In this document: positions 25,724 through 61,820 of the stretch, in pieces
Layout of the letters: each line of letters opens with the position of its first letter
Numbering within the stretch: position 1 is the first letter of the stretch
Assembly (NCBI GenBank): GCA_964016885.1
Contig: OZ024742.1
Location: forward strand, 326,554,001-326,618,000
DNA length: 64,000 bases
From: Eledone cirrhosa
Taxonomy: Eukaryota
Reading direction: 5' to 3'
The notes under the pieces: generated by a model
Databases searched by the model: none
Told to the model about the DNA's origin: nothing
The model's input: only the letters and a program-made list of their open reading frames with translations
Made by a program: the position numbers and the translations under genes

Positions 25724-25838
<115 letters not shown>

Positions 25839-25840
25839 TG

Positions 25841-25891: not shown

Positions 25892-26026
25892 CCTCTTTTT
25901 CATCCTTTCCACCCACCCCCCTCATTTTTTTCCCAATATCACACATCAATCTAAAACTACTTTTCATATGTTGATTTAAAACTGCACTATTCACAAGTGT
26001 TTTTAACCTTCATATCATGTCTCCCT

Positions 26027-26095
26027 ATTTTATCTGACGAAAACGCAAATGTCATCGCATGATGATATTTGTTTTTGAAATGCGCATAATAAAAT
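26027..26095 (+). ncRNA. Hammerhead family A
   Basis: attttat-CTGACGA-16-bp stem II-GAAA-tgcgca-TA-ataaaat; palindrome ATGCGCAT. Confidence 0.9.
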
Positions 26096-26125
26096 CCATG
26101 GCACTCTTTTAACCATCTTTTGATC

Positions 26126-27310
<1,185 letters not shown>

Positions 27311-27337
27311 CAAAAGATGGTTAAATGAGTGCCATGT

Positions 27338-27406
27338 ATTTTATTATGCGCATTTCAAAAACAAATATCATCATGCGATGACATTTGCGTTTTCGTCAGA
27401 TAAAAT
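27338..27406 (-). ncRNA. Hammerhead family A, sense to the ORF
   Basis: Reverse complement of 26027-26095. Confidence 0.9.
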
Positions 27407-28631
27407 AGGGAGACATATGAAGGTTAAAAACACTTGTGAATAGTGCAGTTTTAAATCAACATATGAAAAGTAGTTTTAGATTGATGTGTGATATTGGGAA
27501 AAAAAATGAGGGGGTGGGTGGAAAGGATGAAAAAGAGGAGGAGATGAGAGTAAAGAATGGAGGGGGAGGAGTATAATAAGGAAGAATGAGATAGGAGGAG
27601 AGATGGGTGTTAGAGAGAGAGATAGCTTTTATAACTGAGAAAAATATATTGTTTTACAGAGAGAGGTTAAAAAACCGTTGGAAGATAATATATAAATTAA
27701 AAGAATTTGAAAATTAACGAAGAGAAAAATTTAAGAATAATGTTAAATTAAGGTTTGTATATTGAAGAGTTTAATAATATGTGCGATGAAAAGAAATTGT
27801 TAATATGTATTAAGAATAATATTAAGTTAAGGTTTGAATATTGAAGGGTTTAATAATATGTGCGATGGAAAGAAATTGTTGATATGTATTATTAAAAATA
27901 AAAATCGTAATGTAATTAAGGATATATTGTGAAAAGAAGTAGAAGAGTGGATGAATTATGAATTTAGAGGAATTAGTTAGTGTTTAAGTATGTTCTTATG
28001 TAAAGTAATATGTATGTGTAATATATAAATAGTTTGTTTACAAATGAGCGCAGAAAGTAAAGGAGATAGTGTTTAAGGAGAAGACTTTAACATCAAAATA
28101 TGTATGTTTATGAAGTATTTCCTAATGGTAATAATATAATGTAATAAAGGAGATTAGTTAGTTTTTAAGTTTGTTTTTATGTGTTGTGATGTGTAAGTTA
28201 GACGAGCATGAAAGAGAGAAAAATATAATGAATTGAGGATGAATAATCTAACGTAAAAAAAAATGTTTGTTTGCGAAGGATTTTTCAAGGTGATACTATA
28301 AAGTATTTAAAAGGGTAATAGTAAGTCTTATGGCCAGTGATAGGATGGAAGAAGGAAGAGTGGATATATTGTGGTCAGTAATAATGAGAATCGAGAAGTA
28401 TCTAGGAAGAAAAGGTACAGATTAGAGGTTAGAAATTAAAAGAAAAAGGGAAAAAGGAAGAAAGGGAAGTGAAAGATAGGAATGATAAAGAATGGGTAAC
28501 TAATATTATATAATGTATAATAAATAACATTGAAATAAGGTAGAAAGATGGGTATATTTTTAAAGAAAAATATATATATATATATATGTGCCTTTGAGAA
28601 AAAGGATTTTAAATTGGTAAAGTATTAGATA

Positions 28632-30991: not shown

Positions 30992-31204
30992 GTTGTAGAA
31001 GAAAAAGTGAAGGACCATCAAAAGGTATCCAATATGAGAGTTAGCGCTCAACCGTTAAGGAGCAAGTTAATGTAGGAGGTGAGTTTTATTGTAGTACAAT
31101 AAAGCAATGCAGATATCGCACATCAATCTAAAACTACTTTTCATATGTTGATTTAAAACTGCACTATTCACAAGTGTTTTTTAACCTTCATATCATGTCT
31201 CCCT

Positions 31205-31273
31205 ATTTTATCTGATGAAAACGCAAATGTCATCGCATGATGATATTTGTTTTTGAAATGCGCATAATAAAAT
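31205..31273 (+). ncRNA. Hammerhead family A in the inverted pLTR
   Basis: Same fold with a CTGATGA core. Confidence 0.9.
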
Positions 31274-31494
31274 ACATGGAACTCTTTTAACCATCTTTTG
31301 ATCTTATATATTATTTATACTCCAGTCCTACAAACTGTAGAGTGCTACTTATCCGATATCTGCATTGCTTTATTGTACTACAATAAAACTCACCTCCTAC
31401 ATATATATATTTTAAGGAACGATCGACTTTCGTCAAATCGGACCGAGGGAACAATGTTTCCGTTAGTCTTTCCAATTGCTAATACTATCTATCG

Positions 31495-31634: not shown

Positions 31635-32094
<460 letters not shown>

Positions 32095-32428: not shown

Positions 32429-32621
32429 TTATATATATATATACACACACATATACATATATATATATATATATATATTATTAGAAAGTGAGGTTTTTTT
32501 TACAAAATGAAAAATAACCGAGATGTCCTACACGAGTGAAAGTATAAAAAAAAAAAGATGAAATCGACTATGCAACTGGAGTCTTATTTTTTTAAAAATA
32601 TATTTTTTTTTTATTTGGTTC

Positions 32622-32656
32622 CTTTATAGTTTCGCAGTTCTTCTGCTTTTCAAAAG
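32622..32656 (-). ncRNA. Hammerhead, degenerate stem III copy of 33426
   Basis: ctt-TTGAAAA-gcag aagaa ctgc-GAAA-cta-TA-aag. Confidence 0.55.
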
Positions 32657-33178
32657 TAGAGTTGAGATGGAGGGTCTGTGGTTTTTCTCACATCTGGTTG
32701 GTCTCCGAATGTTACTTGTTTTATATGGAAAAAAGTGGCTTGAAATGCCAGGTTTTTAGAGAAGTAACTTGATTGGTTGGTCAATAATTATAATAAATTT
32801 CGCGCCAGTTCTCGTTACAAAGTTCTTCAAACAAGGAGGGGGGGCACAGATTGTTCTTTCATATATGAGTGTTTGAATTTCTTTTTATTTAAAAAAAGGG
32901 GCTCACGAAGGCTTTTTTTAATTGACGTAATTTAATTGGTTATAAATTAAATTATGACTGTCACGTGAACAAGTTTTCATTAAATTTTCGCGCCCTTATT
33001 TGGAAATCTATTCTGTAGCCTTTTTCGAGAATTTTATGACAAGCAAAAGATAATGGTCAAGAGAAATGGGATGGGAGAATTGTTCTGGTTCAGTGAATAT
33101 GGTTAGTTCGCTGGGGTGTCAGTATTCAGATTTTCTATTGAATAAAGAAATTAAAGACATGTATGTTTATTTGTGTGC

Positions 33179-33290: not shown

Positions 33291-33425
33291 GTTGTTTGTG
33301 TGTGTTTCAATTTCTTTTTACTTAAAACAGGGGCTCACGAAGGCTTTTTTTCCCAATGTAAAACAAGTAACATTCAGAGACCAACCAGATGTGAGAAAAA
33401 CCACAGACCCTCCATCTCAACTCTA

Positions 33426-33461
33426 CTTTTGAAAAGCAGAAGAACTGCGAAACCGGTAAAG
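33426..33461 (+). ncRNA. Minimal hammerhead, U3-A8 core
   Basis: ctt-TTGAAAA-gcag aagaa ctgc-GAAA-ccgg-TA-aag. Confidence 0.75.
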
Positions 33462-33538
33462 GAACCAAATAAAAATATATATGTTTTTTTTAAATTAAGA
33501 CACCAGTTGCATTTTCGATTTCATCTCTTTTTCTATAT

Positions 33539-33623
<85 letters not shown>

Positions 33624-33626
<3 letters not shown>

Positions 33627-33817
33627 CGAAAGAAATGTGGTAAGGAATCAGGTGGACCATAACGCACCAAAGTACTCAATACTTAGGGTAGTAGAGTGGG
33701 TAATAGGAACGAGTAGGATCCCGACGCCTGAGCTCAAGCCGTTTCGACGGCTAATTCTGAGTCCAGAATTAGCCGCCGAAACCGCTTGAGCTCAGCCGTC
33801 GGGGTCCTACTCGTTTC

Positions 33818-36718: not shown

Positions 36719-38590
<1,872 letters not shown>

Positions 38591-38642
38591 CATATATATA
38601 TATATATATACATATATATACATATATATACATATATATATT

Positions 38643-38694
<52 letters not shown>

Positions 38695-38698
38695 TATC

Positions 38699-38771
<73 letters not shown>

Positions 38772-38774
38772 AAG

Positions 38775-38809
<35 letters not shown>

Positions 38810-38819
38810 GTATGTATAA

Positions 38820-38913
<94 letters not shown>

Positions 38914-38923
38914 GTATGTATAA

Positions 38924-38975
<52 letters not shown>

Positions 38976-39019
38976 GTATGTATAAGTATATATATATATA
39001 TATAGTTTTAATATAGATG

Positions 39020-39070
39020 AGATTCTACAGGACTAGAACTGTTTCATTCATTAGAAATCATCAGGAATCT
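39020..39070 (-). ncRNA. Hammerhead family B
   Basis: Reverse complement of 54359-54409. Confidence 0.82.
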
Positions 39071-39787
39071 GGGTATCAAAAAATAAATATGGTATTTATA
39101 GGTCTCTACAAGTGGTAGGAGAGGGTGGGGAGTGGGATGGGTGCAGGTCATTGGTTGATAGAAAAGGGAATTCATTAAAAGCTAATTCTACAAAGCTATA
39201 GATTATTTTTATTTTTATTTATATTTATTTATGTTTTTAGAGTAACAAAGGCAGACAGAATTCTATAAACAGGTTCCGGATGGCATACCATTCCTTGTCA
39301 ATAAGTTTCTCTTAAGCTAACAGATGTCTATAAAATCAGTGGGGGGTCAGTCATGGTCGATAGAATTAAAGAAAAGGGAGATTCTTTAAAAGCTAAAGTC
39401 ATTAAGGTTCTACTAAGTGACAAAGGTCTAGAGAATTCTGCAGACAGATTCAAAATACTGAGTGCATATCTTACTATTATCTTCGAACTTCTCTTAAACT
39501 AATCAACTATATGCCAAAAATCAAAGGACACATTCACAAAAAAACAAAAAAACAAAAAAACAAAAAAACAAAAAAACAAAAAAACACATACTCACTCACA
39601 CACTTACGCGCAACCATAAACACACACACAAACACATATACACACATAAAAAAACACACACACATATATAAAAATATATAAATATATATAAATATATATT
39701 CATGTACACACACAAACATACACACATACATACATACATACACATACAATACATATACATATATATATATACACACATACACACACG

Positions 39788-39851
<64 letters not shown>

Positions 39852-39974
39852 GATACACACACACACATACACATACATACACACACACACATATATATAC
39901 ACAAATAAATACTCACACTCATACATACAAACACGAGTAAACATATGTATAAATATCCATACATACACACATAT

Positions 39975-40017
<43 letters not shown>

Positions 40018-40162
40018 CACATATATATATATACATATACATATATATATATATATATCCATACATATACAAACATACACATACATACACAGACCTATAC
40101 ATAAATATACACATATATATACAGACATATAACGCATATATACACACACATATACATATACA

Positions 40163-40198
<36 letters not shown>

Positions 40199-40203
40199 CA
40201 TAC

Positions 40204-40234
<31 letters not shown>

Positions 40235-40384
40235 CACACACGCGCATACACACATACACACACCCACACACAAAATATATATACACACTCTCTCTCTCAC
40301 GCACATATATATATATATATACACATACACATATATATACATATATACACACACACATATATATATATATATACATATATACAC

Positions 40385-40416
<32 letters not shown>

Positions 40417-40548
40417 ATACACATATATATATATATATACACACATACACACACATACACACATATATATATACATACACACATACACATACACAGACAC
40501 ATACATATACACATATATATACACACATATATATATATATACACACAT

Positions 40549-40582
<34 letters not shown>

Positions 40583-40779
40583 GTAGATAAATCTACCAAG
40601 AGTTTACGGTAGTGTCCAATCCGTATGAAGAACTCAATGTATTCCGGATATCATGGAAAGAAGAAATGTAATGAAAAATCACTTTCGGTGAAAGATAAAC
40701 GGTATACAGAGTCAAGATAAAATATTAAACAAATAATGAATAAACAATGAAAACAGTTCCTTATATTAAACAAAAAAAG

Positions 40780-40933
40780 TTCATTATTTAACGATCGTTT
40801 CTAGGATATATATGTGTTAGAATTGGCATGCATATTCAACAGATCTATGTACAAAATTATACAAAATTATACAAACTATCAAGATTAAATATACATACCA
40901 ACACATATATACGCCGTCTTCAGAAATAATGAA
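40780..40933 (-). ncRNA. Hammerhead family C with ~115-nt stem II
   Basis: ttcattattt-CTGAAGA-long hairpin-GAAA-cgatcg-TT-aaataatgaa; 10-bp stem I; palindrome ACGATCGT. Confidence 0.85.
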
Positions 40934-41573
40934 ATATATTTATTGATAATAACAACAATTCAAAATTTCAGGTCCGTTTGGGAACAAAATTGACCAATGA
41001 AAATACAAAAGGTTTAATGCAGTTCAGTGTGTGTATATACATGTAACTACCCTTACACATATTTTACAAAAATGTATGTACAACTTGTATACGCATATCA
41101 AAAGGATGGATGCAAGTACAAAATTTCAAGGTTAATGTCTCTGTAAGTTTATAATGCACAGATAAGATGCGTATAGACACATAAATATGAAATAAGTGTA
41201 TATACATATTCACATAGTCATACATATCCGTACAATCATACACACACGCGCGTATATGCATAAACATACACATAACTACGAACATACAAACACACACACA
41301 CCCCCACTCACATATATATATGTGGATATAAAATCCTAAGCACATGGATATTAATTCACTCACATAAACACTGGCACACACATTTAGATCAAGATACAGA
41401 AATTAGGTGGGAGGGGGGGAGAGGTCAGTATTCAACGGTTTTGGCAGACTGCTTAATATAGATGTATCTATAAACTAAGAAAATAAAAAATAATAAATAA
41501 TAAATAAACAATAAAAGGAAAGAAAAGAAAAAGAAAAAAGAAAAAAGAAAAAAGAAAAAAGAAATATATCAAG

Positions 41574-41641
<68 letters not shown>

Positions 41642-41815
41642 CATACATACATATATATACATACACACACACACACACATACATATATATATATACACAT
41701 ATACAAACACATACATAGATATACACACATCCACACTTAGAACATACATACACACACATATATAAAAACATATACATATACACACATACATACATATACA
41801 CACATACATATAAAT

Positions 41816-41878
<63 letters not shown>

Positions 41879-42179
41879 TACATACATACACATACATACA
41901 CATATAATCACACATACTATATAGACACACATATATATACACACATACACGCACATATACATACACTTACATACTTATATACATACAGATATAGACATAC
42001 ATACCTATATATACACACAAATACATACAGACATACATACATACATACAGACAAATACTTACGCATCTATATATCGGTATATACATACAAACACCACTAC
42101 ACTCTCACACAACTCAGACATACAAAGAAAAAGGTATATACCTATACACAAATACATATACAAATAGAGAAACATATAC

Positions 42180-42254
<75 letters not shown>

Positions 42255-42452
42255 CACATACACATACATACACACACACATACATACACATACATGTACA
42301 CACACATAGATATATATACACATACATACATACACACATACATATATAGTCATACACACAGATACACCTACACGAACATACACATACACATATATAAAGA
42401 TATATATACACACACACACACACATACACACACACACATATATATAAAATAA

Positions 42453-42503
<51 letters not shown>

Positions 42504-42840
42504 TACATATACATACATACACACATACATAGACATATATGTACATACATACACATACACAGATACATACACACACATACATACATATATATATACACAC
42601 GTAGACATATACATACAAACACACACAACTTACATACACACATATATATTCATATATAGAATTAGATATATATTCATACATACACTCGCACTTACATATA
42701 CTCATATATATAAATACATAGGCATTCATATATGCGTATATACATAGAAACACCAATACACACTCACCCAACTCAGACATACAAAGAAAAAGGCATATAC
42801 ATATATATATATATATACACGCATTAATAGAGATATATAT

Positions 42841-42881
<41 letters not shown>

Positions 42882-43103
42882 CACTTATATATATATACCC
42901 ACACACACATACAACCATAAATACACATACAAACACCCACATATACATATATATACACATATATATATATACACACACACATAAAAAACAGACATGCACA
43001 TATATATTTTTTACACATATATATACACATATATATACATATACACAGCCTCACATATACACACATACACATAAGTTATATTATAATAATAAATAATATA
43101 TAT

Positions 43104-43146
<43 letters not shown>

Positions 43147-43409
43147 CGAATATAGACACATATACACACATAGATATATATATACGTATATATATATATA
43201 TACATACATATACACACACACATATACACACTCACATATATATATATGTGTGTGCAAACACACATATATATACACATACACACATATACACATAAACACA
43301 TATATGTGTATACATGCACACACACACATATATCCACATAGATACGAAGATAGACATATAAATAGAGAGACATACATATATATACACACACACATATACA
43401 TACATACAT

Positions 43410-43458
<49 letters not shown>

Positions 43459-43777
43459 CACACATACACATACACATATATATACACATGCATATATACA
43501 CATATACACATACATACACACATATATATACACACACAATCTTACATTCTTATTTGCATGCGCATATATGTATTTTTATATTCAGATATAAATACCCAAA
43601 CTTATATACACCTACCTACATATATATTCATACATACACACTTACAAACACAGATGATAATAGTATGGGGGAAAGGGGGGGGGGGGGTTGGAGAAGGGGA
43701 TTATAGTAAATATATGTTTCAAGAAACATAGAATATTATCCGTATCTGGATCCAATGTATGTTTTTACATATTTTCA

Positions 43778-45678
43778 AGGATCATAAATCAAACTTTAAC
43801 TCAAATCCTTCTATTAGACTTATATGTCCCTCCAAATCAGATATTGGAATAATTAGCAAAAAAATTTTGGATAGAGTCATCCCACAAATAAGAAAACATG
43901 TTATTTTACCACTCTGGGAAAACACCTCCCAGGTAATTAACTGGTTTAAAAATATTAGATGTAAATCTTCTGCTTCATTTCTACAATTTGATATAGATAA
44001 TTACTATTCTTCTATATCACCTATACTCCTGAACAAAGCATTGATATTTGCTAAAAATAGATCTAACTTAACCTTGGATGACATTAATATTATTACACAT
44101 GCTAGACTAAGACTTATTGAATTTCAGAATGAATACTGGACCAGAAACACATATAGTAATCTATTTGATATTACTATGGGTTCAAGCGATTCCGCCCAAA
44201 TTACTGATCTTGTGGGCCTCTTTCTCCTTTTCAACATAAATGCCTCCTTTCCCCACCACAAAGGTGGTTTATATCGTGATGACTGTCTTCTTCTTTCTAA
44301 CAACCTTAGCCTTTCAGAAATTGAAAAAAACAAAAAACATATTAGAACTTTCCTTAAAGACTATTATAATCTTAATATTACTTTTGAAAAAACAAGTAAA
44401 GTAGTAAATTTCCTAGATATAACTTTAGATTTAGCTACGGGTATCTACCAACCTTACCATAAACCAAACCAAAACTTACATTACATACACTCACAATCTA
44501 ATCACCCTAAATCTATCCTTAAAAACCTTGCATATAATATATCACTTAGAATTTCTAACCTTTCATCTAACCAAGATGTATTTGATAAAAATGCGACCTT
44601 CTATAACGAAGCTCTAGATAGAAGTGGCCACAAAAATAGATTAGAATATATACCTTCTACTAAAAATACTGTAAGCATACAACCTAATATTACCAACAAA
44701 CACCAAATGAAAAGTACACACCTAAATGCCACCCACACTATACCCCAAAATACCAAATCTTCTAATATAAAGTATAGTAACTCTCAAAAAACTACTCATC
44801 ATACAACTCTAATAAATATTAATAATAAAACTCCAAATAAAAAGGATAAAACACCTAAATCTACAAATATAACTAAAAATGGTTGTGGTAAGATCATTAA
44901 CATTAATCCTCCTAGTAAAAATCACGATACAACCTATAAAAATAATAAAAATAATAAACAACATAGAAACCGTAATAGACAGGTTACTTGGTATAATGCT
45001 CCATTTAATTTACAAATTAAGGATAATATTGCTAAAAAAATTTTTTATATCCTAGAGAAAAACTTCCCGCCAAACCACAAATACCATCAAATCTTAAATA
45101 GGTCTACAGTTAAATTCTCATACTCTACAACAAATAACATAAAACAAAATATAAGTGCCTATAATGCATATAAATGTAAGAAAACCATAAGTATACCACC
45201 AGTACATCAAACTAACCATAATATCTCCTCAAATACAGAATTAACGAAAGGTTGTAACTGTAGAAACAAAGCAAACTGCCCATTAAAAGGGAATTGTCTT
45301 GTTAACAACATAGTATATAAATGTAATGTTAAAACTAAAGATTCTATTTGCTCATATATAGGAGCTACCTCTAACAATTTTAAGACAAGGTTTAATACCC
45401 ACAAGCATAGTTTTAAAAATGCCGCACTGGCTAATACAACATCTCTAGCAGAAAAAATCAATAGTTATAAAAATAAGAATATAGAATATGATTTGACCTG
45501 GAGTGTGCTCAAAAGAGCCACCCCTTATCAAAATAATAGAAATGAATGTAGATTATGTTCCCAAGAACTATTTGAAATAATGAAATCTAAGGATATCCTA
45601 TTAAATAAACGACAGGAATTAATTATATCGTGTAATCATAAACTAAAAAAAACATTTAAATATTATAAACCTAATTAA
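43778..45678 (+). CDS. Naiad-type RT + GIY-YIG endonuclease, open but 5'-truncated at KDHK
   Basis: KDHK, RLICPSKSDIG, FLQFDIDNYYSSI, MGSSDSAQITDLVG, GLYRDD, NFLD, SNHP, CNCRNKANCPL, VYKC..YIG, CRLCSQE, LNKRQE..CNH. Confidence 0.93.
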
Positions 45679-46218
45679 TAACATTATTTTAGAAATTAAT
45701 TTAATTTAAATGTTAGTTAACCTATAAATTTAATTTAATTAAAATTCTATTACAGATGAGAATATAAAATATTATGTAATCTTAAATTGTGAAAAACCTT
45801 TAAATATTACTAATATATACTTAGTAATTTAATTTATAGATTAATTTTAATTTATTTAAACCTTTATTATAATTCTTTTACAGATAAAATATAACAAAAT
45901 ATCGTGTATCCAATGACAGAGAAATAATTTTTAGTATTATAGACCTAATTAATATACATTTTAGAAATATATTTATAATTTGGTTTTAATTTTAGTCAAC
46001 CTAAAAATTTAATTTAATTGGCTTAAAATTAGTATCCTTATACAGACGAATTGCAGAATGTCATGTAATCATAGAATGAGATGTGTTTTGGATATATACC
46101 TAGTTAATATATTCTTTGCAATTTTTGAAAAAATATGTATATGTATATGTTGTATGTGTATGTGTGTGTGTGTGTATATGTGTATATATGTATGTATATA
46201 TGTATATATATGTATATA

Positions 46219-46251
<33 letters not shown>

Positions 46252-46995
46252 TAATTTTGATTTCTATTTGCATATAATTATATTCTGCTATTGATAAAAT
46301 ACAATATCTGTTTTATTTATTATATACCTAATTAACATATACTATAGAAATAAATATATAATTTTTAATTTAGTTAACCTATAATTTATATTCTACTACC
46401 GATGTAATACTTATTTGTTTTTTTCCCTATTACTAAATTCATTTCCTAATATTGATACCATAACGTTATTAACTTTAATTTAGTTATACTATAATCAATA
46501 CTCTACTACTTTTTAACTTCAAAATTCTGCTTCAAATATTATAAACCTAACTAATTTACACCTTAGAAATCAATATGTTAACTATCTTTAGTTTAGTTAA
46601 CATATAATTAATGGTATACTTATTTATTTTGAAATGCATAAATTTTGCCTTATTTCTTGTTTATTGTATTTCCTAACACTGAAAATATGTAAAAACATAC
46701 ATTGGATCCAGATACGGATAATATTCTATGTTTCTTGAAACATATATTTACTATAATCCCCTTCTCCAACCCCCCCCCCTTTCCCCCATACTATTATCAT
46801 CTGTGTTTGTAAGTGTGTATGTATGAATATATATGTAGGTAGGTGTATATAAGTTTGGGTATTTATATCTGAATATAAAAATACATATATGCGCATGCAA
46901 ATAAGAATGTAAGATTGTGTGTGTATATATATGTGTGTATGTATGTGTATATGTGTATATATGCATGTGTATATATATGTGTATGTGTATGTGTG

Positions 46996-47072
<77 letters not shown>

Positions 47073-47337
47073 ATGTATGTATGTATATGTGTGTGTGTAT
47101 ATATATGTATGTCTCTCTATTTATATGTCTATCTTCGTATCTATGTGGATATATGTGTGTGTGTGCATGTATACACATATATGTGTTTATGTGTATATGT
47201 GTGTATGTGTATATATATGTGTGTTTGCACACACATATATATATATATGTGAGTGTGTATATGTGTGTGTGTATATGTATGTATATATATATATATACGT
47301 ATATATATATCTATGTGTGTATATGTGTCTATATTCG

Positions 47338-47404
<67 letters not shown>

Positions 47405-47629
47405 ATATATATATTATTTATTATTATAATATAACTTATGTGTATGTGTGTATATGTGAGGCTGTGTATATGTATATATATGTGTATATATATGTGTAAA
47501 AAAATATATATGTGCATGTCTGTTTTTTATGTGTGTGTGTATATATATATATGTGTATATATATGTATATGTGGGTGTTTGTATCTGTATTTATGGTTGT
47601 ATGTGTGTGTGGGTATATATATATAAGTG

Positions 47630-47674
<45 letters not shown>

Positions 47675-48011
47675 ATATATATCTCTATTAATGCGTGTAT
47701 ATATATATATATATGTATATGCCTTTTTCTTTGTATGTCTGAGTTGGGTGAGTGTGTATTGGTGTTTCTATGTATATACGCATATATGAATGCGTATGTA
47801 TTTATATATATGAGTATATGTAAGTGCGAGTGTATGTATGAATATTTATCTAATTCTATATATGAATATATATGTGTGTATGTAAGTTGTGTGTGTTTGT
47901 ATGTATATGTCTACGCGTGTATATATATATGTATGTATGTGTGTGTATGTATCTGTGTATGTGTATGTATGTACATATATGTCTATGTATGTGTGTATGT
48001 ATGTATATGTA

Positions 48012-48084
<73 letters not shown>

Positions 48085-48290
48085 TTATTTTATATATATG
48101 TGTGTGTGTGTATGTGTGTGTGTGTGTGTGTGTATATATATCTTTATATATGTGTATGTGTATGTTCGTGTAGGTGTATCTGTGTGTATGACTATATATG
48201 TATGTGTGTATGTATGTATGTGTATATATATCTATGTGTGTGTACATGTATGTATGTGTATGTATGTGTGTGTGTATGTATGTGTATGTG

Positions 48291-48365
<75 letters not shown>

Positions 48366-48666
48366 GTATATGTTTCTCTATTTGTATATGTATTTGTGTA
48401 TAGGTATATACCTTTTTCTTTGTATGTCTGAGTTGTGTGAGAGTGTAGTGGTGTTTGTATGTATATACCGATATATAGATGCGTAAGTATTTGTCTGTAT
48501 GTATGTATGTATGTCTGTATGTATTTGTGTGTATATATAGGTATGTATGTGTATATCTGTATGTATATAAGTATGTAAGTGTATGTATATGTGCGTGTAT
48601 GTGTGTATATATATGTGTGTCTATATAGTATGTGTGATTATATGTGTATGTATGTGTATGTATGTA

Positions 48667-48711
<45 letters not shown>

Positions 48712-48891
48712 ATTTATATGTATGTGTGTATATGTATGTATGTGTGTATATGTATATGTTTTTATATATGTGTGTGTATGTATGTTCTAAGTGTGGATGT
48801 GTGTATATCTATGTATGTGTTTGTATATGTGTATATATATATATGTATGTGTGTGTGTGTGTGTATGTATATGTGTATATATGTATGTATG

Positions 48892-48965
<74 letters not shown>

Positions 48966-49591
48966 CTTGATATATTTCTTTTTTCTTTTTTCTTTTTCTT
49001 TTCTTTCCTTTTATTGTTTATTTATTATTTATTATTTTTTATTTTCTTAGTTTATAGATACATCTATATTAAGCAGTCTGCCAAAACCGTTGAATACTGA
49101 CCTCTCCCCCCCTCCCACCTAATTTCTGTATCTTGATCTAAATGTGTGTGCCAGTGTTTATGTGAGTGAATTAATATCCATGTGCTTAGGATTTTATATC
49201 CACATATATATATGTGAGTGGGGGTGTGTGTGTGTTTGTATGTTCGTAGTTATGTGTATGTTTATGCATATACGCGCGTGTGTGTATGATTGTACGGATA
49301 TGTATGACTATGTGAATATGTATATACACTTATTTCATATTTATGTGTCTATACGCATCTTATCTGTGCATTATAAACTTACAGAGACATTAACCTTGAA
49401 ATTTTGTACTTGCATCCATCCTTTTGATATGCGTATACAAGTTGTACATACATTTTTGTAAAATATGTGTAAGGGTAGTTACATGTATATACACACACTG
49501 AACTGCATTAAACCTTTTGTATTTTCATTGGTCAATTTTGTTCCCAAACGGACCTGAAATTTTGAATTGTTGTTATTATCAATAAATATAT

Positions 49592-49747
49592 TTCATTATT
49601 TCTGAAGACGGCGTATATATGTGTTGGTATGTATATTTAATCTTGATAGTTTGTATAATTTTGTATAATTTTGTACATAGATCTGTTGAATATGCATGCC
49701 AATTCTAACACATATATATCCTAGAAACGATCGTTTTAAATAATGAA
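49592..49747 (+). ncRNA. Hammerhead family C, 3' copy with two extra T at the cleavage site
   Basis: GAAA-cgatcg-TTTT-aaataatgaa, versus TT in the 40780 copy. Confidence 0.75.
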
Positions 49748-49801
49748 CTTTTTTTGTTTAATATAAGGAACTGTTTTCATTGTTTATTCATTATTTGTTT
49801 A

Positions 49802-49867
<66 letters not shown>

Positions 49868-49928
49868 CACACACATACACATACACATACATATACATAT
49901 ATATACATATATAAACACACATATATAC

Positions 49929-49959
<31 letters not shown>

Positions 49960-50110
49960 TATACACACATATATACACATACACATACATATATATATAT
50001 ATATACATACATATACACACATATATATAAATATATATACACACACATACATATACATACATATACACACACACACACATACACACATATACATATATAC
50101 ACATACAAAT

Positions 50111-50188
<78 letters not shown>

Positions 50189-50207
50189 CTGCCCACACAA
50201 CATATAC

Positions 50208-50257
<50 letters not shown>

Positions 50258-50269
50258 GCACACACAAAC

Positions 50270-50328
<59 letters not shown>

Positions 50329-50459
50329 CATATATATACACACACATACATATACACATATATATACATATACACACACATACATACACACATACACATA
50401 CATATACATAAACATACATACATACATACACATACATACATACATACATACACATACAT

Positions 50460-50504
<45 letters not shown>

Positions 50505-50600
50505 CACATACACAAACATATACATACATATACATACATAAATATACACACTTAAAACACATATACACACAAACATATATATATATACATATGTATACAT

Positions 50601-50697
<97 letters not shown>

Positions 50698-50916
50698 TAC
50701 ACACACACACATATACAAACAAATATATACACATACAAGTAAATAGGTACTCAATAAATATACGCATATACGCAGGCACATAAAGACACCTCTACAGGCA
50801 GAAAATGTAGATACGAAAGAGGTACTCACATAACCATAGTGGCCGTATTACAGGTTGAGGAGGGGTGGGGGGTAGGGTGGGGAGGAGGTATAGGGGCCAA
50901 TAGGGGGAGGTCGTTT

Positions 50917-51466
50917 TTAGCCATCGGGCTTTAACACTGGCTTAAAGTGTTTGAATGTTGCAAAGTTCTTGTGCATGCAGTTCGGGCAGTGTTCAGAGAG
51001 TTTGTTCAGTAGCGGGCCCTTGGCGAATAAAATTTCGTAGCTCTCTGAAATACAAAGGTCGCAGCCCTTGTGTCCTCCGTTGTAAGAGCGCGCTTTCTGG
51101 AGTATTTTCCAATTAAGCGTGAAGGGGGTGGAGTTCCTTTTGAGGTCCCAAACGTAGGAGGCGAGTGTTGTCTGATTTGATTTATCCGGTCTCCTGAAGG
51201 AGTGGGTATGGGCATACCAACGGGTCTTAAAGTTGTTGGAGGTCATGCCGATGTAAGTTTTTTTGCAATCCTCGGTGCCTGAGATGACATCGCATTTGTA
51301 TACGATGTCATTTGTGAGGCATTTGTTTTCTAGTGGGCATGCTTCCTTATTTAGGCAATTACATAGAGCCCCAGTCCGGGGATTGGTTTCGGAGGTGGTT
51401 GGCTTATTTAGTTTAGAGTTGTGGTTGGCTATATTCCTAGCTAGGTTAGGTGTGGTGGAGTAAGAC
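50917..51466 (-). pseudogene. Naiad-type linker + GIY-YIG endonuclease fragment
   Basis: SYSTTPN..CNCLNKEACPLENKCL..VYKC..YIGMTSNNFKTRWYAH..CDLCISE..LLNK..CMH. Confidence 0.9.
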
Positions 51467-51467
51467 A

Positions 51468-51738
51468 GGATAAATCAAATCAGACAACACTCGCCTCCTA
51501 CGTTTGGGACCTCAAAAGGAACTCCACCCCCTTCACGCTTAATTGGAAAATACTCCAGAAAGCGCGCTCTTACAACGGAGGACACAAGGGCTGCGACCTT
51601 TGTATTTCAGAGAGCTACGAAATTTTATTCGCCAAGGGCCCGCTACTGAACAAACTCTCTGAACACTGCCCGAACTGCATGCACAAGAACTTTGCAACAT
51701 TCAAACACTTTAAGCCAGTGTTAAAGCCCGATGGCTAA
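51468..51738 (+). pseudogene. Inverted duplicate of the endonuclease C-terminus
   Basis: Reverse complement of 50917-51187. Confidence 0.9.
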
Positions 51739-51956
51739 AAACGACCTCCCCCTATTGGCCCCTATACCTCCTCCCCACCCTACCCCCACCCCTCCTCAAC
51801 CTGTAATACGGCCACTATGGTTATGTGAGTACCTCTTTCGTATCTACATTTTCTGCCTGTAGAGGTGTCTTTATGTGCCTGCGTATATGCGTATATTTAT
51901 TGAGTACCTATTTACTTGTATGTGTATATATTTGTTTGTATATGTGTGTGTGTGTA

Positions 51957-52027
<71 letters not shown>

Positions 52028-52123
52028 ATGTATACATATGTATATATATATATGTTTGTGTGTATATGTGTTTTATGTGTGTATATTTATGTATGTATAT
52101 GTATGTATATGTTTGTGTATGTG

Positions 52124-52176
<53 letters not shown>

Positions 52177-52329
52177 ATGTATGTGTATGTATGTATGTAT
52201 GTATGTATGTGTATGTATGTATGTATGTTTATGTATATGTATGTGTATGTGTGTATGTATGTGTGTGTATATGTATATATATGTGTATATGTATGTGTGT
52301 GTATATATATGTATATATATATATATATA

Positions 52330-52360
<31 letters not shown>

Positions 52361-52413
52361 GTATATGTGTATATATATGTATGTGTGTATATATGTGTGT
52401 ATATATGTATATA

Positions 52414-52480
<67 letters not shown>

Positions 52481-52496
52481 GTATGTATGTGTGTGC

Positions 52497-52560
<64 letters not shown>

Positions 52561-52709
52561 ATTTGTATGTGTATATATGTATATGTGTGTATGTGTGTGT
52601 GTGTATATGTATGTATATGTATGTGTGTGTATATATATTTATATATATGTGTGTATATGTATGTATATATATATATATATGTATGTGTATGTGTATATAT
52701 GTGTGTATA

Positions 52710-52752
<43 letters not shown>

Positions 52753-52805
52753 GTGTGTTTATATATGTATATATATGTATATGTATGTGTATGTGTATGT
52801 GTGTG

Positions 52806-52860
<55 letters not shown>

Positions 52861-52992
52861 ATGTGTGTATATATATATATATGTGTGTATATATATGTGT
52901 ATATGTATGTGTCTGTGTATGTGTATGTCTGTATGTATATATATATGTGTGTATGTGTGTGTATGTGTGTATATATATATATATATGTGTAT

Positions 52993-53026
<34 letters not shown>

Positions 53027-53181
53027 GTGTATATATGTATATATATATATATGTGTGTGTGTATATATGTATATATATGTGTATGTGTATATATATATAT
53101 ATATATGTGCGTGAGAGAGAGAGTGTGTATATATATTTTGTGTGTGGGTGTGTGTATGTGTGCATGCGCGTGTGTGTATAT

Positions 53182-53215
<34 letters not shown>

Positions 53216-53220
53216 GTATG

Positions 53221-53282
<62 letters not shown>

Positions 53283-53425
53283 TGTATATATGTATATGTG
53301 TGTGTATATATGCGTTATATGTCTGTATATATATGTGTATATTTATGTATAGGTCTGTGTATGTATGTGTATGTTTGTATATTTATGGATATATATATAT
53401 ATATGTATATGTATATATATATATG

Positions 53426-53490
<65 letters not shown>

Positions 53491-54358
53491 ATATGTGTGT
53501 ATGTATGGATATTTATACATATGTATACTCGTGTTTGTATGTATGAGTGTGAGTATTTATTTGTGTATATATGTGTGTGTGTGTGTATGTATGTGTATGT
53601 GTGTGTGTATCTGTGTGTGTGTATATATATATATATATCTATATATATATATGTGTGCGTGTGTGTATGTGTGTATATATATATATGTATATGTATTGTA
53701 TGTGTATGTATGTATGTATGTGTGTATGTTTGTGTGTGTACATGAATATATATTTATATATATTTATATATTTTTATATATGTGTGTGTGTTTTTTTATG
53801 TGTGTATATGTGTTTGTGTGTGTGTTTATGGTTGCGCGTAAGTGTGTGAGTGAGTATGTGTTTTTTTGTTTTTTTGTTTTTTTGTTTTTTTGTGAATGTG
53901 TCTGTTGATTTTTGGCATATAGTTGATTAGTTTAAGAGAAGTTCGAAGATAATAGTAAGATATGCACTCAGTATTTTGAATCTGTCTGCAGAATTCTCTA
54001 GACCTCTGTCACTTAGTAGAACCTTAATGACTTTAGCTTTTAAAGAATCTCCCTTTTCTTTAATTCTATCGACCATGACTGACCCCCCACTGATTTTATA
54101 GACATCTGTTAGCTTAAGAGAAACTTATTGACAAGGAATGGTATGCCATCCGGAACCTGTTTATAGAATTCTGTCTGCCTTTGTTACTCTAAAAACATAA
54201 ATAAATATAAATAAAAATAAAAATAAACTATAGCTTTGTAGAATTAGCTTTTAATGAATTCCCTTTTCTATCAACCAATGACCTGCACCCATCCCACTCC
54301 CCACCCTCTCCTACCACTTGTAGAGACCTATAAATACCATATTTATTTTTTGATACCC

Positions 54359-54409
54359 AGATTCCTGATGATTTCTAATGAATGAAACAGTTCTAGTCCT
54401 GTAGAATCT
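54359..54409 (+). ncRNA. Hammerhead family B
   Basis: agattc-CTGATGA-t ttc taat gaa t-GAAA-cag ttctagtc ctg-TA-gaatct. Confidence 0.82.
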
Positions 54410-54492
54410 CATCTATATTAAAACTGTTATACTCTGCTATGTATTGAGTACCTTACTTACTGTGGTTACCTCCGATTCAACCCGGAATAACG

Positions 54493-54539
<47 letters not shown>

Positions 54540-54556
54540 GTGTGTATATATATATG

Positions 54557-54664
<108 letters not shown>

Positions 54665-54665
54665 A

Positions 54666-55018
<353 letters not shown>

Positions 55019-55032
55019 CATATATAGAGAGA

Positions 55033-55825
55033 GAGAGAATTAGTACATCTACCAACATATGTGTACAGATGTACACCCATGCTAGCAAATATATATGTTA
55101 TGACTTAGTACCTTTGTGGTTCTATGCAGGGGGATGCAGAACAATTATATGAAAGACGTAAAATAAGAAAATTTTAAAAATTAAAAATCAACTTACTAAA
55201 ATGTTCACTCCAACTAATTAGTTTCTGTAAGGGGATAAATATAGTTACGTAATATAACTATAGAGAATTCCTTACGTCATCAGGGAGTCTATTCTCAGCT
55301 AAGTTCCCAGGCGATGCGCGGACACTAGGAACCCATATAAAAATAATAATTCAGTGGATGGAATAAAGCTAGCGAGGACTAAATTCCAGAGCACTGAAAA
55401 AATTCATTGCCTCTGGTAAGTGGCAGATTCTAAAGAATCAATCACGTGACACTGAGGTTAATCAGTTAGGAGCGGGGTGGTATTATGACAAGCGCCTACT
55501 ACTACCATGAATCAGCAGTAAATTTTGGCAAGTTTTGCTTAACAAATAATTTGGAGATAAGTATAGAGAATTAATACATCTACCAACATATGTGTACAGA
55601 TGTACACCCATGCTAGCAAATATATATGTTATGTCTTAGTACCTTTGTGGTTCTATGTAGGGGGATGCAGAACAATTATATGAAAGACATAAAATAAGAA
55701 AATTTTAAAAATTAAAAATCAACTTACTTCCTAAAATTTTTACTCCGCGCATCGCCTGGGAACTTAGCTGAGAATAGACTCCCTGATAACGTAAGGAATT
55801 CTCTATAGTTATATTACGTAACTAT
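55033..55825 (-). mobile_element. ORF-less PLE derivative (family D): direct ~165-bp repeats plus a short inverted arm
   Basis: 55033-55197 is repeated at 55565-55728; 55746-55825 is inverted to 55241-55321. Confidence 0.75.
55207..55288 (-). ncRNA. Hammerhead family D
   Basis: actcc-CTGATGA-c gtaagg..tatagtta/taactata..ccttac a-GAAA-ctaattag-TT-ggagt. Confidence 0.88.
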
Positions 55826-55864
55826 GTTTCGGCGAAGTCCAAGGCGGCAGTAAGTAGCGGTAAG

Positions 55865-57265
55865 GTGATTGCTTGCTACTATGCTTCAATCACCTTACCG
55901 CTACTTACTGCCGCCTTGGACTTCGCCGAAACACTTGTGCCCATCACCGACCAGGAAAGAAAAATCATCCTCCACGCCAGGAAGACAGTCTTACTCTTTG
56001 ACGACTCTAAATGGATAAAAAGAGCTCCCGACTCACCCTTCGACGTCAGCATGGGCGCCACGGATTCGGCGGAGGTCACAGATCTTATAGGATTATTCCT
56101 AATAGCCAAACTCACTGATAGGTTTCCTGCATTCGGTGGTGGATTGTACCGTGATGATGGGCTCCTTACCCTTAAAGGGTACAACCCCAGTAGTACAGTT
56201 CGGGTCCGGAAACAATTAATCAGATTCTTCCGCGACTGGGGATTTAAAATAACCCTACAAACGTCCCTGACCAGAGTAAACTTCCTGGACGTGACCCTCG
56301 ACCTCGAAAACGACCTGTACTACCCATACAGGAAACCTAATGACAATCTGCACTACATCCACCGCCGATCAAACCATCCTAGGAACATCACGAACAACCT
56401 GGTCAAAAACATCTCCCTCCGCATATCCCGTTTGTCAGCTAATGAGCGGATATTCGATGAACATGCGCCTTATTACAACCAGGCCCTCAAGCGGAGTGGT
56501 TTCCGGGAGGAAATATCCTACTGTCCAGCTCCCACTAGCGGAACCAGCAGGAGACACCGCCGCTCACGCAATGTAACATGGTTCAATCCTCCCCACAACG
56601 CAGAGGTGACAACTCCCATCGGGAAACTATTCTTTAGGCTCATTGAAAAACACTTCCCATTACAACACCGCTACCACAACATAATTAACAAAAATACCAT
56701 CAAACTCTCTTACAGCACTACACCAAACTTCGCACAAAACATCGTCTCCTCTAACAACAAAAAACTCAACCCCGATGGCAGAAATAACCTAAATAGCAGT
56801 GGAGAACCGACCAGGAGGTGTAACTGCCCGGATAGATCTATTTGCCCACTCGACAATAGATGCAGAGACCGTAATGTGATCTACCAGTGCAACGTGAGGA
56901 CGGATACCTCCAACAAAGCCTATATAGGACTTACCGCATGTGACTTCAAGACCCGGCTATACCAACATAGACATACCTTCCGAAACCCGGCCCGGCGTCA
57001 CGCCACTACACTTTCGGGCCACATATGGGACCTCAAGGACAACAACATCACCTATGATCTCACTTGGAGATTACTGTCCAGAGCCAATTCTTACACGGGA
57101 GGACGCCGTCCGTGCAATTTATGCTCGGAGGAAACTTTACAAATGCTGTTTTCGACGGACCAACTCCTAAACAAGAAAGATGAACTGGTTACTGCATGTA
57201 AACATAGATTGCGTAGGACTTACCTCGCCCTCAAACCCCATAATGACCCCGGGGGGGTAGACTAG
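55865..57265 (+). CDS. Naiad-type RT + GIY-YIG endonuclease, open but 5'-truncated
   Basis: FDVSMGATDSAEVTDLIG, GLYRDDG, VNFLDVTLDL, SNHP, WFNPP, CNCPDRSICPL, IYQC..YIG, CNLCSEE, LLNKKDE..CKH. Confidence 0.93.
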   Translation: MIACYYASITLPLLTAALDFAETLVPITDQERKIILHARKTVLLFDDSKWIKRAPDSPFDVSMGATDSAEVTDLIGLFLIAKLTDRFPAFGGGLYRDDGLLTLKGYNPSSTVRVRKQLIRFFRDWGFKITLQTSLTRVNFLDVTLDLENDLYYPYRKPNDNLHYIHRRSNHPRNITNNLVKNISLRISRLSANERIFDEHAPYYNQALKRSGFREEISYCPAPTSGTSRRHRRSRNVTWFNPPHNAEVTTPIGKLFFRLIEKHFPLQHRYHNIINKNTIKLSYSTTPNFAQNIVSSNNKKLNPDGRNNLNSSGEPTRRCNCPDRSICPLDNRCRDRNVIYQCNVRTDTSNKAYIGLTACDFKTRLYQHRHTFRNPARRHATTLSGHIWDLKDNNITYDLTWRLLSRANSYTGGRRPCNLCSEETLQMLFSTDQLLNKKDELVTACKHRLRRTYLALKPHNDPGGVD

Positions 57266-58386
57266 GGCTATAACACCCCACTTGCCGATTTTGCAATGGG
57301 TAACCCCTGCTTGCCAAGGGAGACGTAAGATCTTCTTTGTATTCTTTTATCGCTTCCTTTATTTCCTTCCTTCCCCCCTCTCTCCTTAGTCCTTCTACCC
57401 CAGCTCTTCTTTGTCGGCGTCTTTTCTCGCCCACCCGAGGCTGCCCTTTGGCCCCTTGTAGCCTTAGTACCCCACCCCCTCCCCTAGTCTAGGATAGATT
57501 TGGCGGACTCCGCCCTTTATAGCAGTTGGTTTAGACCCCGGATACTTGTCCCCTTTTTCCGACCGCTCCCACTATTCTCTGTGCCCTCTATATTTCTTAG
57601 TGGCACTTATGCCTTATTTTTTCGTTTCAGTATTTCTTTCTTCGCTTTTCTTTTGGGCGGGGTGGATTCTGAATTTATTCTTCCGTATTCTACCTTTACT
57701 TCGTACGAACTTTCATGTAGCTTGTTTTAGATCTTTTAGAGTTAGCATTAGTATATATTTTTCTCGGGACTCAGAATTATTATCTCGTATTAGTTCACTT
57801 TGCTGCACTGGGTGGTTGCTGGAATTGTGCCCGGGATGGAAACCTTTATTGTTTATTTCGTGGTAGTCTCTTTAGTATTTTGGCCCCTTTTGTTGACCCG
57901 TCACCGTATCATTTACGTACTTATACCTCTTAAAAGGGTCCTCGCCTATTCTGTCCCACCTAGTTCTTTTACTTATTTCGTTATTTCTTTATTTCTTTCT
58001 TTACTTCTTTCTTTCTTTATTTATTTATTTATTCTAGACTAACAATAGCTAGAGACCTAGGTCGTAGAATTTAATTTACTTTACTTTTTTCTTTACACTC
58101 ATTTGTTTTTCTTTACACTTATTTGCTTTTCTTCACTCTCAGTATTTTTATTTCTACCCCCCATTGTTCTACCTACCGTTCCGACTTCCTCCCCCCCCCC
58201 CCCCTCCCCTGTATATTCTTTGACCTCATGCCCAGCTGTAGCTGGCACTACAAACGCTTGATTGCGGCTACTCCACCCCCTCCCCTCTTTCTCCTACTGG
58301 CAGGTTTAGCCACCATCTCCCCTACTAATTTGCAACCACAGAATTACAACTGATTTTTGACAATCACTTTGACCATATATGGAATT

Positions 58387-58480
58387 ACCCCTTGAGAAGA
58401 TCGGCTATTTAAATACCAGGATAAATTTTCATTTGGTCCAGAATTAGCCGTCGAAACGGCTTGAGCTCAGCTGTCGGGGT
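58387..58480 (+). ncRNA. Hammerhead family E, U3-A8 core, GUC site
   Basis: acccc-TTGAGAA-gatcggcta...tagccgtc-GAAA-cggc ttgagctca gctg-TC-ggggt. Confidence 0.88.
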
Positions 58481-58639
58481 CTTACTGGTTCCTATTACCC
58501 ACTCTACTACCTCAAGTATTGAGTACTTTGGTGCGTTATGGTCCACCTGGTTCCTTACCACATTTCCTTCGTTATGTATATATATATGTATATATATATG
58601 TAAATATATATATAGGTATATATATATATGTATATAAAC

Positions 58640-59488
58640 ATGGTAGTAAAAACTCCCCCACAGTCAGGAATTAGAGAAAAACACCATGGAAAGCATCCAG
58701 CAAATAGCTAACTCCATCCACCAAAGTACTATAGACTACCCAGGAAAACAACCCAACCATCGATTACCTGTACTAGACACAGAGCTCTGGTTAGATACCA
58801 TTAATAACAAAAAACAAATCCTCCATTCCCATTATGCCAAACCCATGACTTCCAAATATCTGATCCACCGAAACTCAGCTGTTTCGGACCATACCAAAAT
58901 CAACATACTGATTGCGGATTTGGTACGGGTGATGAGAAACGTGTTCCGCATGTGCAACCCCAAAGAACTAGAAAAACACATAAAACACTTCATCCACCGT
59001 ATGCAATTCTCTGGTTACAATCAGAGAGATAAGATCACAGTATAAAGAGGAGCCAGAACCAAATGGGAAAAAATGGTAAATAATGATACAAATAGGACCT
59101 GCCCCTTGTACAGGAGCAAATTCTGGAATAGAATGGAAAGAACTAGGAATAAGGTTAATAGAATAAACTCATGGTATGATAGCAATAAATACCGGAGTGT
59201 AATGTTCATCGATACAACCCCTAGAGGTGAATTAGCTTATAAATTTAGAAGGGCCCTGGATAAACATAAACTCAATATTAAGATAGTAGAAAGACCAGGT
59301 ATCTCCATAAAAACAATTATTAGCAATACATACCCTTTTCAAAGACCTCCCTGTATAGATAAGAAATGTATAATCTGTAAACTAAGCCCCCATATTAACT
59401 GTAAAACTAGAAATGTAGTATACAGCATAAGATGTACTGAAGGACAATGTAGAGATAAGAATATAGTGTACATAGGTGAGACAGCTCG

Positions 59489-61250: not shown

Positions 61251-61304
61251 GATCGATACAGATCGAACCTTCTATTATTATATCATTATATATAAAAGGG
61301 CCAA

Positions 61305-61627
61305 ATCATGCCGAGGTTAACTTTGCCTTTCATCCTTACGGGGTCGATAAAATAAAGTACCAGTCATGCGCTGGGGTCGATTTAATCGACTCCCCCCCCC
61401 CCCAAATTGCTAGCCTTGGGTCTATACAAGAAACCATTATATATAAAAGGGCGGTGGATTGGCGGTATCGGTAGAGGTTCGGACGCCATGCTTTGCAGCA
61501 AAGAGTTACGGCCCTTTCATCCTTACGGGGTCGATAAAATAAAGTACCAGTCATGAGCTGGTGTTGATCTAATCGACTTTCCCCTCCCCCAAAATTGCTG
61601 GCCTTGTGCCTAAATAAGAAACCATTA
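61305..61627 (+). mobile_element. Two tandem Nin/Deu-like SINEs (first 5'-truncated, second internally deleted)
   Basis: Same central domain and tail as the other copies. Confidence 0.85.
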
Positions 61628-61820
61628 ATAGATTTGGCATATCTAAGAAATTATTTTCCTATTCTAATTTCCAATAAATCCCTTGACAGGTTTATCAGTT
61701 AGGTCGGCTTAATATTTGATTGCTTGATAACTGAGACAAAATTAATTTCTCGTAAGTCTTCGTGCGTGTGTGTGTGTGTATGTCTTTATATATGTGTATA
61801 TATGTGTGTATGTGTGTATA

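Follow-up and report, generated by a model that had tools for sequence, protein, structure and literature searches.

The closest described relatives of the locus reported here are the Penelope-like elements (PLEs) of the Hydra clade, to which the parts of Craig et al. 2021 (PMC8557442) that we draw on assign Hydra-1_Obim and Penelope-13_HM. In these elements a reverse transcriptase (RT) is followed by a GIY-YIG endonuclease; they carry CxCx5C, CxxC, and CxH motifs but no CCHH motif, insert into (TA)n, and have a 3' hammerhead. The same parts of that paper include an octopus family in the Hydra table, describe a 966-nt inverted 5'-truncated copy at the 5' end of Penelope-13_HM, and call the origin of the inverted ends of PLEs an open question. 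A head-to-head inverted truncated copy with a tail at one end is an insertion pattern given for PLEs both there and in the sections of Arkhipova et al. 2013 (PMC3846280) consulted, which also report, in Adineta, Pen2a nested in Pen3 and Pen1 with a 0.9-1.5 kb spacer before its 3' pseudo-long terminal repeat (pLTR). For rearranged Drosophila Penelope, excerpts of PMC3681739 and PMC3136932 describe long inverted repeats, propose double-stranded RNA (dsRNA), and report that, in transformed D. melanogaster, small interfering RNAs (siRNAs) map to these inverted stretches. Here, we analyze a 64,000-nt stretch of the Eledone cirrhosa genome (GCA_964016885.1, contig OZ024742.1, positions 326,554,001 to 326,618,000; hereafter, the window), in which positions 39005-54492 form a 15.5-kb double palindrome built from two PLEs, the inner one nested in the outer one. 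The locus resembles the described systems in domain order, motifs, target, and head-to-head layout.

The window is AT-rich, animal-like DNA with many TA and CA microsatellites and one 200-N gap, and its repeat landscape resembles that of an octopus. Both elements of the locus follow the same plan: a longer, tail-less, 5'-truncated copy lies head to head with a shorter inverted copy that carries a tail, and all four element ends adjoin TA runs. In the inner element, the long copy (43778-49810, +) starts with an open reading frame (ORF) of 633 open codons that is 5'-truncated at a KDHK motif (43778-45678, +), followed by a 4,132-nt 3' region without a tail (45679-49810, +), whose last part (46680-49810) forms the right arm. 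The inner short copy (43777-40584, -) consists of 3' region only (the left arm, 40717-43777, -) and a 133-nt tail (40584-40716, -). The outer long copy (51467-39005, -) is split by the inner element. It retains an ORF remnant with a CxCx5C linker and a GIY-YIG endonuclease (50917-51467, -), a proximal 3' region whose first bases, on the window's coordinates, are the TA target's right half (49811-50916, -), and, beyond the inner element, a tail-less distal 3' region (39005-40582, -) that ends in a TA tract (38406-39004). The outer short copy (51468-54492, +) comprises the right arm (51468-54425, +), which holds the last 90 ORF codons (stop at 51736-51738) and a 3' region of 2,687 nt, and then a 67-nt tail (54426-54492, +) followed by a TA tract at 54493-55026. 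Dinucleotide microsatellites make up 58-61% of the length of each arm, and the inner 3' region additionally has degenerate, AT-rich, tandem-like repeats from the ORF end onward (45625-46390), where contigs of other copies have go-back joints. The arms are asymmetric, since neither tail has a mirror partner, and the palindromes are not tightly closed: the outer arms are separated by about 280 nt (51188-51467, the unpaired part of the ORF remnant) and the inner arms by 2.9 kb (43778-46679), with the outer left arm additionally split by 9.2 kb. The long dsRNA suggested in the initial annotation would require a transcript through both arms, and the instability suggested there may be limited, as palindromes with spacers of this size are less fragile than tight ones.

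The initial annotation presented this architecture as striking, a view that holds for arm length only. The sources above, as far as their consulted parts go, already describe 5'-truncated copies in inverted orientation, tails at one end, the nesting of one PLE in another, and siRNA derived from long inverted repeats of Penelope. What is unusual, relative to those parts, is the scale: 2.7-4.1-kb 3' regions that are about 60% microsatellite and contain the clade's own target, long tails, and an inner hammerhead-like motif with a stem II of about 115 nt, compared with the short stem-loops of the Hydra elements that we viewed in File S2 of PMC8557442. Hydra-clade elements are described there as generally shorter than 3 kb, whereas the truncated inner long copy alone spans 6.0 kb, the 3' regions of this locus alone measure 2.7 and 4.1 kb, and its arms measure about 3 kb. 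Likewise, the Adineta pLTRs of the excerpted text are about 180-220 bp with a 31-bp tail, in contrast to the ~3-kb arms and 67- and 133-nt tails found here, and the present locus has neither a direct-tandem pLTR nor a junction palindrome. The Drosophila Penelope with its siRNAs belongs to a different clade. In a literature search that covered few subscription papers, no title or abstract opening among the papers listed described Hydra elements with arms of 3 kb or with microsatellite 3' regions of several kb. The locus is thus an extreme in size of a kind that is already known.

Self-BLAST of the window detected the inverted arms as one inner pair (40717-43777 versus 49810-46680, 95.6% identity with gaps) and two outer pairs (38421-40595 versus 55026-52814, and 49827-51192 versus 52846-51463). 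In a global alignment, the inner arms share 3,021 of 3,026 aligned bases, with 5 substitutions and 15 indels; every indel falls within a repeat run, whether of dinucleotides, of a single base, or short and A-rich. The alignment score of 5,874 far exceeds both the 720-830 obtained from 10 six-mer shuffles and the 1,379 of an inner arm against an outer arm; therefore, the match is not due to common microsatellite content. When the inner element is excised in silico, the two outer arms align colinearly over about 2,800 matches, with 15-55 substitutions depending on gap penalty. These come partly from a single rearranged microsatellite block, whose misalignment had made a first count of 42 too high. 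The nested double palindrome with ~3-kb inverted arms in both elements, and the scattered substitutions between arms, had been proposed in the initial annotation, and both alignment approaches agree with it.

The insertion of the inner element can be read directly from the uninterrupted right arm of the outer element. There, the position that matches the inner insertion point (52812-52846) is a pure 35-nt TA run, as had been noted, whereas the filled site (left half of the target, 40563-40583) has TA runs of 20 and 54 nt, together about 36 nt more than the empty site. This is the sole difference at the insertion point, and target-site duplication and slippage are not separable as sources of the ~36 additional TA bases. 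The outer arm resumes in register past the insert, which confirms that the inner PLE lies within a TA run of the outer left arm. Moreover, in five of five alignment settings the inner arms have fewer substitutions than the outer arms (5-11 versus 15-55; Fisher p from 0.023 to 6e-9). Together with the empty site and an inner ORF that is still intact, the lower inner-arm divergence makes a later insertion of the inner element, as originally suggested, appear well supported by the sequence. In addition, two alleles that are rare in the inner family occur in both inner arms: the base found in the window is present in about 8% (43602) and about 2% (43640) of some 12,300 reads. These common rare alleles fit one source for the two arms.

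To relate the locus to other copies of the inner family, four of 16 read runs (X1, X3, X4, and X14) were placed on 43560-46130, which covers one of the four junctions, 43777. The family is abundant (2,206 and 2,271 contigs in X1 and X3, both from one sample, and 185 in X4). In the four runs, loose ends at 43777 show both the upstream continuation of the family's ORF and the 3' region continuing beyond the arm. Given these native continuations, the joint at 43777/8, at which one base is shared, is specific to this copy. The raw reduced-representation reads of X14 stack from 43560, near an SphI site at 43556, and 113 of them reveal eight other joints of the inverted 3' region to the ORF, all head to head (43586>44439, 43601>45297, 43603>43780, 43629>44239, 43681>44164, 43704>44159, 43719>45354, and 43730>44151). 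Two further X14 joints, 43706>43753 and 44494>45560, are internal deletions and were kept outside this count; no strand-changing joint is among the X14 joints listed. The eight joints of the same orientation in an independent library indicate that palindromes of the inner family recur, and, if their 3' region is the same, these copies would have ~3-kb arms too.

These results bear on whether the locus could be an assembly artefact, with mirror arms produced by fold-back chimeric reads or a repeat misjoin. The 200-N gap in the scaffold, the very high copy number of the family (2,206 contigs placed in X1), and the fact that no read or contig spanning the locus's own 43777 junction is among the records listed would fit such an artefact. 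However, in a fold-back the flanks would be mirrored as well, and a tail on one side only could not arise; past the insert, the outer left arm continues in register, and only TA is lost or duplicated; the arms differ by 5 and at least 15 substitutions; and the same joint type occurs at eight other breakpoints in independent Illumina reads. On these grounds we rejected the artefact, which we regard as improbable, and hold the locus to be real with high probability. The junctions at 40583, 43777, 49810, and 51467 given in the initial annotation are present in the assembled sequence; at 43777, the one that the read comparison covered, no spanning read is among those records.

The same reads speak to a further rival, a DNA transposon of the Foldback type whose terminal inverted repeats are long and modular and which took up parts of PLEs. 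Long inverted arms rich in simple repeats are a resemblance to such transposons. Against this, the outer arms include the end of the endonuclease ORF, a hammerhead-like motif terminates the arms of both pairs, each element is asymmetric at its ends, and the locus encodes no transposase. Since the reads show that the arm is the native 3' region of a PLE family, we rejected this explanation, to which we give almost no credence.

The assignment to PLEs rests on the proteins and motifs. The inner ORF encodes an RT, an N/K-rich linker, a CxCx5C motif, and then a C-terminal GIY-YIG endonuclease, and it aligns across RT and endonuclease with full-length homologs at 28-49% identity (89 matches among 8,000 scored, of which 9 were aligned together with three window ORFs). 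Between RT and linker, an in-frame N/K/T-rich insert of about 95 residues (44660-44960) is missing from most aligned homologs and is reminiscent of the N-rich inserts of Adineta Penelopes. The outer element retains only the 3' end of its ORF, in which Pfam recognizes the GIY-YIG domain (PF01541, E 5.9e-5); for six of the eight window proteins tested, the inner ORF included, Pfam gave no match. The two endonucleases share 41% identity, and the elements therefore belong to different families. A canonical PLE with a C-terminal endonuclease at 36719-38404 (-), which has DKG, a cysteine pair between GIY and YIG, and Pfam matches to RVT_1 and GIY-YIG, served as a control. Both inner and outer elements have the CxCx5C linker that the control does not, lack the CxxC between GIY and YIG (CCHH motif) that the control has, and show CxxC and CxH around the conserved E and N. 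Their target, (TA)n, is that of the Hydra clade, and the RT motifs agree by eye with Hydra proteins in the viewed part of File S4 of PMC8557442. According to the sections of Craig et al. 2021 used here, CxCx5C, CxxC, and CxH without CCHH mark this clade, so that both elements are likely Hydra-clade PLEs. Missing the CCHH zinc-finger motif in the endonuclease, they do not fit Neptune, Nematis, or Penelope-Poseidon, and their C-terminal endonuclease does not fit Naiad, in which it is N-terminal. The N-terminal marks of the Hydra clade, RWK and DKT motifs without a CxC, would lie upstream of both truncations; among the 89 homologs, RWK occurs in 23 and DKT in 51, anywhere in the protein. Altogether, the anatomy and protein motifs uphold the proposal of two PLEs as real insertions with inverted pLTRs.

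Each 3' end carries a hammerhead-like motif whose core and stems fit, by eye, the layout in the part of File S2 of PMC8557442 that we viewed. The outer motif (54359-54409, +, with a left copy at 39020-39070, -, likewise matched by eye to File S2) has a 6-bp stem I, a CUGAUGA core, a 3-bp stem II, a 4-bp stem III, and a GUA triplet, and is not energetically distinct (folding z 0.33). The inner motif (40780-40933, -) has a 10-bp stem I, a CUGAAGA core, a stem-loop II of about 115 nt, and a short stem III, with a folding z of -6.2 for its stems; its right copy (49592-49747, +) has 2 additional nt at the cleavage position. An Rfam search over 38900-58000 returned 205 matches (E up to 1), of which the 150 listed are all microRNA families that score below the gathering threshold, almost every one of them on microsatellite. 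Beyond the motif, the tails are one-sided in both elements, and no ORF start was found in any frame of either tail. A near-full-length, frameshifted Hydra-type element of the same layout at 27310-31402 (-), with a 1.3-kb 3' region, a hammerhead, and a 190-bp inverted arm, has a tail of about 97 nt, the last ~54 nt of which are repeated directly upstream of its 5' UTR and ATG. Because of this recurrence, a tail is likely the head of the next unit in a tandem or circular template, as judged from the sequence.

We consider it quite probable that each palindrome is one PLE insertion, likely of the Hydra clade, that left two 5'-truncated copies head to head in a TA repeat, with the inner likely later. 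In such an event, the GIY-YIG endonuclease would nick both (TA)n strands, and each free end would prime reverse transcription from the 3' region of the RNA, one at the start site of the tail and one at a non-tail start site. Both cDNAs would stall early, and their far ends would be joined through 1-2 nt of microhomology, so that arm length would equal the length of the shorter cDNA. Two-strand priming and the joining of stalled cDNAs would explain head-to-head order, one-sided tail, and microhomology together. In addition, the ~3-kb arms likely follow from the 2.7-4.1-kb, microsatellite-filled 3' regions, and nesting would arise because these regions contain (TA)n, which offers fresh targets for the next insertion. 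Such priming resembles L1 twin priming, in which both target strands prime and an inverted segment is joined by microhomology; twin priming, however, inverts a different 5' piece of one RNA, whereas this locus duplicates the 3' end. For a PLE, PMC11167929 reports that an Anolis protein cleaves and extends both target strands in vitro and starts reverse transcription at two sites bracketing the tail.

A doubtful but serious alternative keeps the same elements and derives the inverted copy from self-priming or fold-back on one (antisense) template, after which the endonuclease would trim one end and so make the tail one-sided. Self-priming is proposed in the consulted part of PMC3846280 and, for the tail, in that of PMC8557442. 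It is also in keeping with the near-identical arms with common rare alleles and with a true junction palindrome (55825-55933) in a fourth Hydra-type element of the window. Neither the inner nor the outer junction has such a palindrome, however, and the short copy holds a tail that is missing from the long copy, while the long copy holds ORF sequence that is missing from the short one. Since each copy holds sequence that the other lacks, neither is a plain copy of the other. Furthermore, a head-to-head joint of two Hydra-type families lies at 25837-26125, where a 55-nt piece from the 3' end of the outer family (-) meets about 235 nt from the 3' end of the family of the 27310-31402 element (+), with 2 shared bases at 25890/1 and TA on either side. 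By its sequence it is possibly a two-template integration, or a deletion between neighbours, and, if it was one event, self-priming would need two templates to produce it.

It is about as improbable as an assembly artefact, or slightly more so, that two independent head-to-head insertions per family, or a post-insertion inverted duplication, formed the palindromes, with gene conversion keeping the arms alike. TA tracts are insertion hot spots here, and at least 6 unpaired inner-spacer positions differ from nearly all placed contigs and reads (judged on 40 of 329 rows), compared with about 2 expected from arm divergence. Nevertheless, neither joint has a TA target between the copies, and a diverged source copy explains the rare alleles and spacer differences equally well. 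Nor was distance-dependent gene conversion detected in the outer arms, where substitutions in the proximal (0/467) and distal (4/530) parts do not differ significantly (p=0.13).

Several observations weigh against single insertions of Hydra-clade elements by two-ended priming, with the inner one later. Two-ended priming is inseparable by sequence alone from self-priming with asymmetric cutting, and in the fourth element (55744-58572) it is the long copy that carries the 3' extension, which shows that this polarity has exceptions. Within non-microsatellite blocks, the age order is less clear (0/1,006 inner versus 4/997 outer substitutions, p=0.06). Targeted Rfam scans recognized neither hammerhead-like motif, and a strict motif scan missed both, its four matches being three copies of the motif of the 27310-31402 element and one site at 4827. 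The tails are two to four times as long as the 30-40 bp in print, and the Hydra placement combines motifs with by-eye comparison. The read check covered 43777, where no spanning read is among the records listed, and the eight X14 joints derive from a single sample and a single reduced-representation library, in which chimeras are possible.

Related structures occur elsewhere in the window. Two ~190-bp head-to-head mini units from the 3' end of the fourth element lie within TA runs at 31902-32094 and 33626-33815, with nearly identical joint points and a 77-nt one-sided extension; between them is a 190-bp inverted pair that is 89% identical (32543-32734 versus 33346-33539). The fourth element itself (55034-58572, with the element proper at 55744-58572 and an ORF at 55931-57265, +) has the 109-nt palindrome described above at its 5' joint, upstream sequence duplicated as an 86-bp inverted and a 180-bp direct copy, and a hammerhead-like region with an atypical core near 58390. 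A PLE fragment at 58637-59488, from the RT thumb to the start of GIY-YIG, lies between TA runs and is presumably Neptune-like. Other repeats are minisatellites with units of 25, 36, and 48 bp (6659-7216, 1653-1798, and 11606-11817, respectively) and a ~200-bp SINE-like repeat, both dispersed and tandem (3562-3752, 15807-15999, 16810-17019, 19240-20064, and 61302-61630).

This locus is a clean test case for the origin of inverted PLE ends, since long arms, one-sided tails, many independent joints, and one joint between families can tell two-ended priming and self-priming apart. Should long 3' regions full of microsatellite prove to be family-wide, these elements may be a main source both of TA repeats in this genome and of substrates in the form of long dsRNA. 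More speculatively, and with doubts of our own, the Hydra PLEs of this genome may have evolved multi-kb 3' regions rich in their own (TA)n target together with two-ended priming from two separate RNAs. If so, the two-family joint at 25890/1 would be the fossil of one integration with two templates, and every jump would build a kb-scale palindrome and double the fresh targets, a self-feeding loop that would spread microsatellites and dsRNA-forming nested palindromes genome-wide.

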